The notes: generated from the letters alone by a model not told the origin. Counted from the first letter of the stretch, positions 52,084 through 56,126 are shown. The stretch is DNA of 64,000 bases from a virus (IMGVR_UViG_2786546475_000032:1-64000); one strand, 5' to 3'. Numbers and translations: made by a program.

Positions 52084-52756
52084 TTTTTTCTTCATCTTTT
52101 TAAAATAATTATATTCCTTTTAGAAATAAATTCATGATATATATTTATATATATCACTCAAAAAACCCCACCCAAAAAGAAAAACAAAAAGAAACCCTAC
52201 TCAGATAGATAAAGAGAATCCAGATATAGAGAAGGAAGATATAGTATTAATAGATATGTCTAAAACAAATACACACTAAGACAATACCTAAATAAAGGAT
52301 ACCGACACACATATAACACACAAACCTAGCTCATATTGATACACCTTTGAAAACCTCTATGTTTTAGATTGTTGTAAATCACCCATATTCAGAAGATTGT
52401 TGTAAATTTTGGCTACCGAAAAACGATATCTCAAACTTATACATAGCTTATAAAGGGGTTTTACACTAATAGGGGTCATATTGATACCCTTAGTTAGATA
52501 TAGGGGCCATATCGTGTTAATATGGGTTAAAAAGAGGTGTTTAAGGTTGACTTAGGTCTAAAAGAGGCATGTTTAAGGGGTAGGTCAGAATGATATGGGT
52601 TTGTTAGACATATGATAAATGAAGTTTACATAATGCCATCCCCGCATATCATCTGGCGACAGGTTTAAAAGATATGGGTCAGGGTTGGTTGTATTTAAAA
52701 GATCTGATATAGATTTGATATATCTTACAGCAGGTTCTCAAGCGGCTTTAGCCGCG

Positions 52757-52870
52757 TTTTGACCCCTATTTAAAAGATATATGTAGAACGATGATAAAGG
52801 CAGTTTACATAATGCCTTCTGAACTTATTCTATATCTCTTAGACATATATCTTTTAAATAGGGGTCAAAA
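52757..52870. repeat. Perfect 28-bp inverted repeat enclosing a lone XerD-like arm
   Basis: ttttgacccctatttaaaagatatatgt (52757-52784) and its reverse complement (52843-52870). Confidence 0.85.
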
Positions 52871-53209
52871 AGCTGTCTTACCCTAGGGCCAAAAAAAACG
52901 AACAACTATATCTCACCCGCATATATAGCTATCTTTAGGCAATCGTCTAAATGTACCATTTTTTGATATAGGTCTAAAAAAGTGTAACAAGTTTGGAGTT
53001 TTTCCTAGATGCGGATCATAAAATGGCAATTTTTACAGCAGGTTCACAAGCGGCTTTAGCCGCGATATGTAGGAAATAGATATAGGCTATATCAAAAAGA
53101 TAATGGTCGAGTCCGATAAGTGATATTATGTAAACCAGGCCCCCAGGGGGTAGAAGGTCCGATAAGTGATATTATGTAAACTCGTTTCACAAGGGGGTCG
53201 CAAGCGATT

Positions 53210-53326
53210 TTTTAGATAGGGGTAAAAATGATATACTTCCTTCTCTATATCTGTATTCTATATCTTCCTTCTCTATATCTGTATTCTATATCTTCCTTCT
53301 CTATATCTTTTTACCCCTATCTAAAA
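53210..53326. repeat. 19-bp inverted repeat enclosing a 28-bp tandem repeat (~2.6 units)
   Basis: ttttagataggggtaaaaa / tttttacccctatctaaaa around (cttccttctctatatctgtattctatat)n. Confidence 0.85.
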
Positions 53327-53366
53327 CAAGGTCCGATAAGACCGCATTATGTAAACTTGGTTTAGA

Positions 53367-53648
53367 TGCAAAATATGTGCCAAAAAATTAGGCATGACTT
53401 TTGCATATGGAAAAGCTGATAAACCAAGTTTACATAATGCGCGGCTTGCAACCCCCGTGCCAACTATTCAAAAAATGGTAAAATAATTCAAGGTCCGATA
53501 AGTCGTGTTATGTAAACTAGCTGAGTTTACATAATACCCGCAAGCCGATCCACAAGCTGGCGGAAATGTCAAGAGAAATTTGTAATTATTTTTATGCAGG
53601 AGCCTTTCAAAATCCGTGCCAACTTTCGGTATGCAATCCCTATGCCAA
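53367..53648. promoter_or_regulatory. Five sigma-54 -24/-12 motifs
   Basis: YWGGCAY-N5-TTGCA at 53367(-), 53389(+), 53447(-), 53606(-, TTGAA variant), 53632(-). Confidence 0.78.
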
Positions 53649-53677
53649 CTTTTTACACAAATTTCGACTTGCACCTA

Positions 53678-53813
53678 ATTATACCATACTCCGAATATGA
53701 ATTACAAGATCTTTTTTCAACTTTTTTCAGCGTCCGATAAGTTGTGTTATGTAAACTTCGGGTTCACAGAATTCGAGCAAGCGATTTTACCATATTGATT
53801 TATGGTTTGTCAA
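53678..53813 (-). promoter_or_regulatory. Two extended -10 sigma-70-type promoters
   Basis: TTGTAA-N18-TATAAT (53678-53707) and TTGACA-N18-TAAAAT (53784-53813), both with TATGG before the -10; third copy TTTACA-N18-TATAAT at 55022-55051. Confidence 0.65.
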
Positions 53814-53881
53814 AGGGTTTTTTCAACTTTTTTAGCGTCCGGTAAGAGGCATTATGTCAACTTGTCGGGTAGGTCAAAAAG

Positions 53882-53904
53882 AAAGCCCTCAAAAAGAGGG
53901 CTTA
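53882..53904 (-). terminator. Intrinsic terminator after the 53934 ORF
   Basis: aagccctc-aaaaa-gagggctt with an adjacent A tract (U tract on -). Confidence 0.65.
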
Positions 53905-53933
53905 TTTAAGATGGGTTGATTTGATATAGATTT

Positions 53934-54269
53934 TTAGATGAGTGCGCACTTGATGCGCTCTGGGCGAACCCTCTCTCTTATATCATTGTAAACCATATAC
54001 ATCTCAAAAATGGTCTCTGGAGGGTTAGGGGGATTATTATTACTCTCATATTGATACAGGTCGAAACGATACCTATTTCCATTGTTGATCACAGTGATAG
54101 TATCACCAGTAATATAAACTTTATTATCCCCCTTGACATAATCATAGTTCAAGGTGAGCACCTTTCTACCATGCGTAGTTTTGTGACGCTTGCTAAGGGT
54201 GTAACCTTCAGCTTTGATCCAATTGTGAATGTCGTAGAGAGCGCTAGCGATAAGATTAGCCATTTTCAA
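53934..54269 (-). CDS. Hypothetical protein
   Basis: ORF with AAGGA RBS followed by a terminator. Confidence 0.55.
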   Translation of the reverse strand: MKMANLIASALYDIHNWIKAEGYTLSKRHKTTHGRKVLTLNYDYVKGDNKVYITGDTITVINNGNRYRFDLYQYESNNNPPNPPETIFEMYMVYNDIRERVRPERIKCALI

Positions 54270-54329
54270 AATCCTTTTTTGGATTAGGGTTAAAACAAGA
54301 TAGGTCGGAATGACCTATCTCTATGTGCA

Positions 54330-54369
54330 ATACCCCTTGAGGAATCGAACCTCGTAACCGGTAGGGGTA
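54330..54369 (-). ncRNA. Anticodon-less tRNA mimic
   Basis: TACCCCT-accggttac-GAGG-TTCGATT-CCTC-a-AGGGGTA. Confidence 0.6.
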
Positions 54370-54385
54370 AAAGATATATCTCTAT

Positions 54386-54772
54386 TCAGTAGGGTTTGGG
54401 ATAGTGGTGCTTATTGGTGCCAGTCAGATAGTGTTTAATCTGGCCTTCCTCATCTACCATCCAATTCCAGGGATGGAAAAACTCGCTACCTGGCTTGTCG
54501 CACTGGTAGACCATCATGAGGAATGATTTACTCTGTTTCTTCTCGCCATCAAACTTCCACGCGAGGGTATCAGCGTAAGTAACGTAGGCGCTAGGATTGG
54601 AGCAGTATTCCTCACGGTTAGCAGCGCTAGGACTACTAACCATCGCGGTGTACCGCGCGAATGCTTTCTGAGTGTCACTGACCCCTAAGTCAGCGATAGC
54701 TTGGGTGGCATACCAGAAGGTGGCGCACGCGAGAAGAATTCCAGCCACGATCGTCAAGTCAGCTTTCGTCAT
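54386..54772 (-). CDS. Hypothetical exported/membrane-anchored protein
   Basis: Start reassigned to ATG 54772 (GAGG RBS); N-terminal hydrophobic helix; upstream TTGTTT-N17-TACACT promoter. Confidence 0.6.
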   Translation of the reverse strand: MTKADLTIVAGILLACATFWYATQAIADLGVSDTQKAFARYTAMVSSPSAANREEYCSNPSAYVTYADTLAWKFDGEKKQSKSFLMMVYQCDKPGSEFFHPWNWMVDEEGQIKHYLTGTNKHHYPKPY

Positions 54773-55103
54773 GTTCGTAACCTCATGTTCATGTTTCAGT
54801 GTGTCGCTCTCGTTCAGTACACCCTGAGTGTACATGACGATTGATGAAAAAACAATACCCCAAAGTAAGAAACAAGGACTTTTTTGCATAGAAAATCCCG
54901 AACACCAGCTATGCATCATTCGCATATTTCAAAGGTTGGAGAATGGTCGTTCGCCAGGGGCATAGGTCAATTTGAGGTATATCTTTTTGAAGGGGGTCGA
55001 TTACACGGGGGTGCCAAGCCGATTATACCATACCTCAAATATGGTTGTAAAGCATTATTTCAAACTATTTTCGCACCGATTATGTCAACCCGCGTTATCA
55101 CTC

Positions 55104-55893
55104 AGTTGACATAATACCGCTTATCAGACTTTCTAAAAGATAGGGTAAGGGTGATATAGCTCTTAAAGAGGTAGGTCGATTCAGCTATATCATTTAGGGG
55201 TAGGTCAGAATAGTAGGTGGGAGATTGCTGTATCTCTTTAATAGGGTTAACGAGAGTGTTCTTACAAGAGGTAGTGTAGAATGATGTGGGTTTAAAAGAG
55301 GTATGCTGAAAAGGTGGGTCAAACAAACCCACCTCATCTGATACCCTCTTTTGGATATGTTGAATCATCTTGTTCAATCCAAGTGTTCAAAACGCTTTTG
55401 TATATAAGCTTTCAACACTTCATTTCAACATAAGCTAAAATCCTTATATGCAATTCAAGTGTTGAAAGGCTTATGTTTAGTTGTAAAAATAACCGTAAAA
55501 ATAATTCTGTTAGTATTAAGTGCAAAACTTGCGAGAAGGGCTCTAGAAGGCTCGTGAGAGGACGCTATTTCGCTACCCTTGTCAGTGTATTGACCTATCC
55601 TTTCAAATGGATTCTGAGCCAATCTGTGGACCCCGTTTCACCCGCATAGAATGCGGACTTCCGGCATTATCTAATAGATTTCATGCCTGGATCACAGTTT
55701 CAAGAGTTTGTCAAGCGATCGGCCAAAATAGCTTAATTTTCCTGGCACACACCTTGCATACACTACCTCATCATTACCTATATCTATTTAACCTATCCCT
55801 TTTTACACCCATAGCGACTTGGATGCAAAACCTGTGCCAAGCCTGTTTGTCAACAAAAATCCTGAAGTTGACATAACGCACCTTATCGGACCT
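55104..55893 (-). other. Two dif-like XerC/XerD sites in the opposite orientation
   Basis: AAGTCTGATAA-GCGGTA-TTATGTCAACT (55104-55131) and AGGTCCGATAA-GGTGCG-TTATGTCAACT (55866-55893). Confidence 0.8.
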
Positions 55894-55912
55894 TTTGCAA
55901 GATCAGTGCCAA
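55742..55912. promoter_or_regulatory. Three sigma-54 -24/-12 motifs
   Basis: CTGGCACACACCTTGCA 55742(+), TTGGCACAGGTTTTGCA 55824(-), TTGGCACTGATCTTGCA 55896(-). Confidence 0.8.
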
Positions 55913-56054
55913 GCCTGTTTTGCAAGCTGTTTTTGAAATAAGTTGAGTTGACATAATCCACGCATACCGCGTCCCTCGTTTCTGATCTACATGCTCGAGT
56001 TTTTGTCAAGGGAAAAGAAAGTTTAAAAAAATGCCTTGTTTCATACTTTCGGTG

Positions 56055-56082
56055 TTGACGCGCGCTCCCGGTTTGGTACACT
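56055..56082 (+). promoter_or_regulatory. Sigma-70-type promoter of the rightward operon
   Basis: TTGACG-N16-TACACT directly after a CTTGTTTCATACTTTC motif. Confidence 0.65.
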
Positions 56083-56126
56083 TGACAAGTGGTCGCCCAT
56101 AGGGGGCGTCCCGAGAGAGGTTCAGA

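Follow-up and report, generated by a model that had tools for sequence, protein, structure and literature searches.

Why does an otherwise packed phage genome hold about 4 kb crowded with what look like binding sites for proteins of its host? The question is raised by positions 52100 to 56126 of the viral sequence IMGVR_UViG_2786546475_000032, in which sites resembling dif, the chromosomal site of the recombinases XerC and XerD, are interleaved with lone XerD arms, sigma-54 boxes, and sigma-70 promoters. Bases 1 to 64000 of this 103,047-bp IMG/VR virus record were analyzed here and are called the window. The feature is real, statistically robust, and not described before; the principle, sites for host DNA-binding proteins in the control region of a lytic phage, is already known. 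We tentatively read the stretch as a hub, gated by host factors, at which an uncultured marine siphophage of virulent type and 140 kb controls its early transcription; this function we infer from the arrangement of the motifs.

The XerD-arm decamer TTATGTMAAC occurs in 16 exact copies in the window, compared with 0.45 expected from shuffled sequences, and 14 of the 16 are confined to positions 52624 to 55956 in the 103-kb record. Eight of them belong to two-armed sites of the form GTCCGATAAG-N5-TTATGTMAAC, six on the plus strand (53109-53862) and two on the minus strand (55104-55131 and 55866-55893), and the six others in the region are lone XerD arms. The sigma-54 box TGGCAY-N5-TTGCW was found in six exact copies, with 0.05 expected, and when one mismatch is allowed, eight of the nine boxes of the 103-kb record lie inside 53367-55911. 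All eight (six exact and two with one mismatch) have GG at -24, GC at -12, and the exact spacing between them. Sigma-70-like sites are about twice as frequent between 51.5 and 56.5 kb as in shuffles (24 versus 12.4 ± 3.6). A further ~33 kb of the genome taken from other assemblies, which together with the record leaves out ~4 kb, contains zero XerD arms and zero sigma-54 boxes. The dense clustering that a model had noticed from the bases alone (the sequence-only reading) is therefore far above chance, both by shuffles and by comparison with the rest of the genome. The individual motifs also proved to be what that reading had called them: the sigma-54 motifs are canonical boxes, and the arms and spacing of the dif-like sites equal the dif consensus.

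That consensus was obtained by scanning the two-armed pattern across one genome per prokaryote species, which listed at least 120 chromosomal loci with a single match each. Being present just once in each of more than 120 bacterial genomes, the pattern is a true dif consensus. The listed genomes are mostly those of Desulfobacterota and other former delta-proteobacteria, Myxococcota, Acidobacteriota, Nitrospirota, and Nitrospinota. Desulfobacterota, Myxococcota, Acidobacteriota, and Nitrospirota are heavy users of sigma-54, and the earlier guess of a host with XerCD and heavy sigma-54 use fits the phyla sharing this dif type, the exactness of which narrows the search for the host. The eight phage sites all have the layout XerC arm, 6-bp center, and XerD arm (11-6-11) with an inner ATAA...TTAT palindrome; five match the consensus at 19 of 19 specified positions, three have one mismatch, and the spacing is correct. 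The centers are where they depart from chromosomal dif. In the listed loci the center is overwhelmingly ATATA with conserved flanks, as a site for chromosomal dimer resolution should have, whereas the phage has seven different centers among its eight sites, none of them ATATA, and only sites 1 and 2 are alike. Such non-dif, mostly differing centers would prevent recombination with the host chromosome or among the sites themselves, and, judging from the arms and centers, the sites should bind host XerC and XerD without recombining. Sites that bind without recombining fit gating, anchoring, or titration and speak against integration. Fifty viral contigs carry one such site each, with centers that are likewise varied and unlike dif.

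The likeness to chromosomal dif extends beyond the layout and the consensus arms, since an inverted extra XerD arm adjoins dif in some chromosomes as well. The chromosomal dif loci contain 14 extra exact XerD arms versus ~3 expected. At eight of them (L066, L076, L082, L107, L124, L141, L150, and L153; ~7% of those sampled), an inverted second XerD arm lies beyond dif, at 7 to 30 nt in seven loci and ~80 nt in one, and some loci carry two or three further lone arms alongside. We have not seen this inverted second arm described for these phyla. Its geometry equals that of the phage pairs 53508/53525 and 55080/55105. No sigma-54 box was found in 863 kb around chromosomal dif loci; with the geometry shared and the boxes absent there, the phage appears to copy the dif architecture of its host and to have added the sigma-54 link on its own. 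What sets the phage apart from chromosomal dif are its eight copies instead of one, the varied non-ATATA centers, the interleaved promoters, and no evident role in recombination.

The most likely binder of the sites is a host protein, because the phage has no recognized reader of its own. The 103-kb record yielded no integrase, Xer N-terminal domain, XafT-type Xer activator, RpoN, or sigma-54 activator, and the precomputed domain hits over the ~33 kb of further genome flagged none of these either. The Sigma54_activat profile gave nothing above its cutoff, and its single weak match is a MoxR-type ATPase. The genes of this AAA+ ATPase and of a VWA-domain protein are adjacent in the early region, at 44295-45491 and 42846-44078 (-). 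Most early proteins are ORFans, that is, products of open reading frames (ORFs) without homologs, and one of these might read the sites, with the likeness to dif being a coincidence or due to a phage factor that has the host dif as a further target. In AT-rich phages considered below, the arm belongs to a longer phage-specific motif, which would suit such a protein. We regard this as very improbable: a coincidence would have to account for correctly spaced sites of which five match all 19 specified positions and three deviate at just one, the inverted second arm is also present at chromosomal dif loci, and no Xer-like domain was found in the phage.

The dif-like sites are built into promoters. 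Three near-consensus sigma-70 promoters on the minus strand, P1, P2, and P3, prove on alignment to be paralogous modules. In each, a dif site or arm precedes the -35 by 24 nt, and the order is XerD arm, XerC arm (absent in P3), 24-nt A-rich tract, -35, -10, and a conserved leader resembling a decayed sigma-54 box. Degenerate copies of the module stand ahead of sites 2 and 4, and the paralogous and degenerate copies together indicate that the region grew by tandem duplication of a promoter-plus-dif unit. The possibility that the arms themselves serve as sigma-70 -35 elements was rejected, as no -10 fits.

The sequence-only reading had described the ~4 kb as mostly gene free, with mostly no ORF downstream of the promoters, and had concluded that the array is a device rather than gene regulation. 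The first statement stands for 52100-53933 and ~54890-56126, in which ORF lists and a Shine-Dalgarno scan gave no credible further small ORFs preceded by a Shine-Dalgarno sequence, and does not stand for the part between them, which holds two real genes on the minus strand. These genes form an ordinary transcription unit with P3, followed in order by the first gene, a tRNA-like minihelix, the second gene, and an intrinsic terminator (Table 1). Small genes reading through the dif sites were also considered and were rejected because the variable positions ignore codon structure and no credible Shine-Dalgarno ORFs exist. The second statement is correct for the leftward promoters, which face 1.2 to 1.7 kb without credible ORFs, but not for P3 and the promoter at 56055-56082, which drive genes. 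The latter promoter and one sigma-54 box aim rightward at the genes at 56127-57293, and seven sigma-54 boxes in all aim at flanking early operons that are 0.3 to 1.7 kb away. A device in place of gene regulation is not supported, given that the dif sites are parts of duplicated promoter modules, ordinary genes follow at least two of the promoters, and all the others aim outward at early operons.

The reading as a hub draws on sites that match host dif too exactly for chance, on a phage without a recognized reader, and on promoter modules with plausible targets. Also in its favor are the phage-specific 15-mers that flank the region and face away from it, and the arms and parS that stand just upstream of early promoters in the unrelated phage G001 (see below). 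The hub would sit between divergent early operons and would have been built by duplicating a module made of a host-type promoter and a host XerC/XerD site. After genome entry, host XerC and XerD would occupy the 14 sites without recombining, and sigma-54 RNA polymerase would wait at its boxes in closed complexes that a host activator then fires. The bound proteins may act as a gate on the early promoters that point outward, whether by occlusion, as roadblocks, or by bending the DNA, and the start of the lytic program could thereby be coupled to the state of the host; by attaching to the FtsK/XerCD machinery, the genome might in addition be carried along passively when cells grow slowly. The nearest known counterpart is phi29, in which Spo0A boxes at early promoters and origins, together with five Spo0J parS sites, suppress development and let the phage ride on host segregation, as shown experimentally (PMC2731898). 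The phi29 family resembles the proposed hub in that a virulent phage carries several sites for host chromosomal proteins at its early promoters and origins, tying development and carriage to host state (PMC2731898), and the phi29-type placement next to early promoters is found here in the site or arm 24 nt upstream of the P1, P2, and P3 -35 elements. It differs in its proteins (Spo0A and Spo0J, as opposed to XerC/XerD and the sigma-54 holoenzyme); the copies here are far more numerous and lie in one 3.4-kb block, and the binding and effect that are proposed here were demonstrated there.

Several observations weigh against a hub of this kind. Fourteen sites exceed the needs of simple gating. 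P1, P2, and five sigma-54 boxes aim leftward at the minus-strand early genes, which begin only at ~52.1 kb, beyond the 1.2 to 1.7 kb without credible ORFs, and one sigma-54 pair is convergent and has no product. The 24-nt spacing at P1, P2, and P3 is real but derives from one duplication history and not from three independent events. A Xer arm lies over the predicted start of three sigma-54 boxes and just beyond that of a fourth; three of eight compares with 1.4 expected by random placement (P ~0.16, not significant), so this overlap alone is not evidence in such dense blocks, and an arm over the sigma-54 start was dropped as a rule. No upstream activator site is recognizable for the sigma-54 boxes, and no activator was found in the phage either; a host activator for them is possible. 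Lastly, no divergent relatives of the phage were found in blastn, IMG/VR, or 5.8-billion-protein searches.

Some of these points bear equally on the view of the sequence-only reading, in which the array is a decoy or landing pad made of DNA only that holds host proteins instead of regulating genes. It might titrate XerC/XerD and sigma-54 holoenzyme during replication, or it might coat or anchor the entering DNA (at septal FtsK), unload SMC-type complexes, or pause injection. We consider this unlikely, if well short of negligible. Many sites and boxes have no nearby product, the convergent sigma-54 pair among them, no phage sigma-54 activator was found, and the centers, which are unlike dif and vary from site to site (only 1 and 2, a duplicated pair, share theirs), fit binding without recombination. 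On the other hand, the sites belong to promoter modules with plausible targets, the gain from XerCD titration is hard to see for a lytic phage, and sequestering core polymerase would cost the phage itself. A proposed, unproven precedent is the untranslated iss region of T5, in which eight DnaA boxes in the terminal repeat underlie an injection-stop model (10.1101/866236). T5 is likewise a large siphophage with a long, untranslated, repeat-dense region beside early genes and with ordered host-protein sites; its sites are for DnaA, unlike the XerC/XerD sites here, and its region lies in a known terminal repeat, at the end of the DNA that is transferred first. XerD arms without a XerC arm are also known from Bacillus and Staphylococcus, where, as summarized in PMC9226527, XerD-only sites unload SMC and consist of a XerD arm, 5 to 6 bp, and then the inverted inner 5 bp. 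By that description, the lone arms of the phage do not have this geometry (CATAA at the position in 0 of 6 lone arms), which argues against SMC unloading.

Evidence from other genomes was sought at several levels. The region had no blastn match among 50,697 phage records, and searches of IMG/VR anchored on the MoxR-type ATPase or aimed at the tandem 15-mer pattern of the left border yielded no relatives and no further instance, respectively. Two ORFans beside and inside the array match only themselves among 5.8 billion proteins, and the other contigs with the sequence are 99.99 to 100% identical and so provide no evolutionary depth. A sigma-54 box followed by an arm was found at two loci in IMG/VR, one of which is a repeated promoter in an unrelated contig and is not independent evidence. 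A sigma-54 box followed by a full site occurred in one high-GC contig of the Joint Genome Institute metagenomes and was discarded, as it looks like chance plus an ordinary attachment site. Two facing arms were found at 41 loci in IMG/VR, ~12 of which have 5 to 24 arms.

Three large phages from this last group have their arms clustered in a single region (Table 1). They were selected by the decamer itself (loci L223 and L240 in G001, L238 and L239 in G004, and L241 in G005), and a control pattern read backwards gave 0 to 1 hits per genome in the arm-rich phages. No kinship with the present phage was detected by terminase or tblastx. All three are AT rich with consensus early promoters of the Gram-positive type, and their arms are lone and lie in gaps between small early genes. 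In G001, five parS-like sites, two of them perfect TGTTTCACGTGAAACA, are interleaved with the arms, and arms and parS lie just upstream of consensus TTGACA-17-TATAAT promoters; LexA-type boxes (CGAAC-N4-GTTCG) stand among the arms of G004 (eight) and G005 (four). No parS was found in the 140-kb phage itself. The arm in these phages belongs to a longer motif that is phage specific, and its reader there may thus be encoded by the phage. The clusters suggest a wider, unnoticed feature of phage genomes, and single-region clusters in three unrelated large phages, with parS in one and LexA-type boxes in two, would also favor a decoy. It is nevertheless doubtful that unrelated large phages share a device made of DNA only, that is, dense nonrecombining sites for host chromosome-handling proteins (XerC/XerD and sigma-54 closed-complex sites here, XerD arms with parS or LexA boxes elsewhere) that would hitch the genome to FtsK/XerCD or ParB/SMC or titrate them, independently of the gene products of the region.

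The repeats of the array raise another possibility, namely, that the sites do recombine. An origin, made up of iteron-like GATATAG sets, an AT-rich tract, and activating promoters, together with site-by-site exchange between sister or terminally redundant copies would resolve multimers or cyclize the genome, like Cre/lox in P1, and the differing centers would keep the exchange in register. The heptamer GATATAG is ~10-fold enriched (of the record's 39 copies, 18 fall within 52.2-55.8 kb), two plus-strand copies face five minus-strand copies ~1 kb apart, and a tract of 33% GC adjoins them; from the repeats, these sets are candidate replication origin or regulator sites. The phage encodes its own replisome (DEAD-box helicase, loader-like protein, and DNA polymerase III alpha subunit) and no recognized initiator or recombinase, and the 140.5-kb contig breaks ~2 kb from the array. 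A viral contig (L015:3520-4160) has one dif-like site ~300 bp from eight iterons ACGAACGTTACA, a plasmid-like origin with a multimer-resolution site. Replicon maintenance of this kind seems rather unlikely to us all the same. A single site would do, no center resembles ATATA, and XerD activation requires FtsK or a factor like XafT, neither of which was found in the phage; concatemer resolution would oppose packaging, the origin is deduced from repeats alone, and the contig breaks, which include those at ~50.3 to 50.5 kb, fall on repeats.

A different kind of exchange is suggested by the two-gene cassette, which lies between the inverted sites 6 and 7 with their XerD arms pointing inward. The sites could be footprints of mobile elements, either XerCD attachment sites at host dif, as in integrative mobile elements exploiting Xer (IMEX), or the boundaries of dif modules, as in Acinetobacter plasmids, with the cassette being one module. 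Acinetobacter plasmids are known to carry multiple Xer sites with varied centers on one replicon, as here, including one cassette between inverted sites, and the fifty viral contigs with single, non-dif-centered sites also agree with such a history. Unlike Acinetobacter dif modules, however, the phage has six consecutive sites in the same orientation, mostly with promoter-bearing intervals of 46 to 239 bp, and is a tailed phage of another host group. The orientations do not alternate, the 46- to 239-bp intervals are gene free, and the centers flanking the cassette differ, so that it would be unable to move by simple exchange. All contigs with the array are free phage DNA, none is longer than 140.5 kb, and none has a host junction. 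We judge this history to be distinctly improbable, and module- or IMEX-type mobility of the phage sites is unlikely. Like CTX-phi, VGJ-phi, TLC-phi, and other Xer-exploiting phages, the present phage has host-type Xer sites with centers unlike dif and no recognized recombinase of its own. Those IMEX phages are small (filamentous, microvirus-type, or tailless) and use one or two sites for integration, whereas this 140-kb siphophage has 14 and was never seen in an integrated form.

In the literature searched, phage use of Xer was found only for such filamentous, microvirus-type, and tailless phages, in which XerCD serves integration, and clusters of sigma-54 promoters were not found reported for any phage. 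The present phage is tailed, has no recognized integrase, and encodes its own replisome, and the combination of dif sites, XerD arms, and sigma-54 boxes at early promoters is not described for a tailed phage. If XerC/XerD and sigma-54 polymerase do gate or anchor the genome, this would reveal a new means by which a lytic phage senses the cell cycle and nutrient state of its host. It would bear on pseudolysogeny in slow-growing ocean bacteria and would extend the phi29 principle of Spo0A and Spo0J sites beyond spore formers.

Table 1. Features of the array and its borders (positions in the window) and XerD-arm clusters of three other phages (positions in their own contigs)
Feature	Position	Strand	Remark
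Seven tandem 77- to 78-nt units with 15-mer CTTGTTTCATACTTT	51648..52083	-	Left border, outward
Left noncoding block	52100..53933		AT-rich stretch, iteron-like repeats, lone arms, six dif-like sites, five sigma-54 boxes, two strong sigma-70 promoters
Lone XerD arm	52623..52633	-	Overlaps plus-strand sigma-70-like promoters
Lone XerD arm	52802..52812	-	In loop of 31-nt inverted repeat
dif-like site 1	53109..53136	+	XerC arm, 6-nt center, XerD arm; arms equal chromosomal consensus
dif-like site 2	53155..53182	+	Center same as site 1, 46 nt away
Five GATATAG iteron-like repeats	53245..53307	-	Inverted against two at 52223-52244 (+), ~1 kb apart
dif-like site 3	53329..53356	+	Over predicted start of sigma-54 box 53367-53382
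Sigma-54 box	53367..53382	-	Exact
Sigma-54 box	53390..53405	+	1 mismatch
Lone XerD arm	53427..53437	-	At predicted start of sigma-54 box 53447-53462
Sigma-54 box	53447..53462	-	Exact
dif-like site 4	53491..53518	+	Inverted lone arm 7 nt further on
Lone XerD arm	53524..53534	-	Inverted against site 4
Sigma-54 box	53606..53621	-	1 mismatch
Sigma-54 box	53632..53647	-	Exact; 26 nt upstream of box 53606-53621
P1 sigma-70 promoter	53678..53707	-	10/12 matches, extended -10, leftward
dif-like site 5	53730..53757	+	24 nt upstream of P1 -35
P2 sigma-70 promoter	53784..53813	-	11/12 matches, extended -10, leftward
dif-like site 6	53835..53862	+	1 mismatch in XerC arm; 24 nt upstream of P2 -35
Intrinsic terminator ending cassette	53883..53903	-	
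Cassette gene 2	53934..54269	-	ORFan
tRNA-like minihelix (acceptor stem and T arm) between cassette genes	54325..54368	-	
Cassette gene 1	54386..54889	-	ORFan, N-terminal hydrophobic segment; alternative start 54838 possible
Right noncoding block	54890..56126		Two dif-like sites, two lone arms, three sigma-54 boxes, sigma-70 promoters, long hairpin
P3 sigma-70 promoter	55022..55051	-	11/12 matches, extended -10; upstream of two-gene cassette
Lone XerD arm	55080..55090	+	24 nt upstream of P3 -35
dif-like site 7	55104..55131	-	1 mismatch in XerC arm; faces lone arm at 55080
Sigma-54 box	55743..55758	+	Exact; convergent with box at 55824
Sigma-54 box	55824..55839	-	Exact
dif-like site 8	55866..55893	-	Begins 4 nt after sigma-54 box 55896-55911
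Sigma-54 box	55896..55911	-	Exact
Lone XerD arm	55946..55956	-	From motif map
15-mer CTTGTTTCATACTTT, single copy	56035..56049	+	Right border, rightward
Sigma-70 promoter for rightward genes 56127-57293	56055..56082	+	
XerD-arm cluster of G001 (143.8 kb)	65.7-71.9 kb		21/22 arms in cluster
XerD-arm cluster of G004 (118 kb, circular assembly with 127-bp overlap)	113.6-118.1 kb and 0-1.4 kb		13/14 arms in cluster; across contig junction
XerD-arm cluster of G005 (127.9 kb, ~66% complete)	117.9-126.3 kb		6/9 arms in cluster

The phage itself has no close cultured relative, and its nearest terminase match is only 29% identical. Its gene set is that of a siphovirus, with terminase, portal, major head protein, and a 2,892-residue tape-measure protein. 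The completeness of the record is estimated at 73%, which is consistent with the longest matching scaffold of 140,523 bp. The same sequence is present in several Tara Oceans assemblies, and the independent ones are identical across the array, which indicates that the array is not an assembly artifact. The exception is a 28-nt tandem repeat at 52366-52407, which has 1.5 copies in the record and 3.5 in another assembly and is a scaffold gap in two others. The phage is present in the Tara Oceans samples SAMEA2623403 and SAMEA2622676, with the sequencing runs ERR599365 and ERR594309.

The borders of the array are marked by the 15-mer CTTGTTTCATACTTT, which has 10 exact copies and 4 with one mismatch (at 50992-52083 on the minus strand and 56035-56049 on the plus strand and also at 42598, 45491, 47913, and 54862). 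The tandem units at the left border contain no ORFs; the other copies lie directly upstream of early genes, and the 15-mer therefore behaves like a phage-specific class of promoter. Each tandem unit has a TAnnGT element ~17 nt after an internal TTCATA. From these sequence features, the tandem units look like an array of phage-specific (middle-type) promoters. The two-gene unit to the right of the array (56127-57293, plus strand) has a GC content of 54%, compared with 38% for the genome, and both of its products are ORFans with no homolog among 5.8 billion proteins. ESM Atlas look-alikes of two neighboring proteins yielded nothing usable.

Candidate RNAs were also examined. RNA folds of candidate transcripts had modest z-scores and were not decisive, and the only matches in an Rfam scan were weak tRNA-like (mascRNA-like) ones. 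Further tRNA-like minihelices lie just 3' of early genes at 49733-49784 (-), 50332-50382 (-), 51118-51168 (-), and 57307-57352 (+). The minihelices consist of a 7-bp acceptor-like stem and a T arm with GGTTCRATTCC, have no anticodon arm, and are probably RNA-processing signals. Within the left noncoding block, a 37-nt element is present in two copies that are 92% identical (52725-52761 and 53033-53069, plus strand), each ending in a GCGGC/GCCGC hairpin. Each copy is preceded by a lone arm overlapping sigma-70-like promoters, and they are candidates for small RNAs ~115 and ~250 nt long. In the right noncoding block, three copies of CAAGTGTTSAAAR at 55380-55470, two direct and one inverted, form a hairpin with 26-nt arms that is operator-like, and the long hairpin of this block spans 55409-55468.

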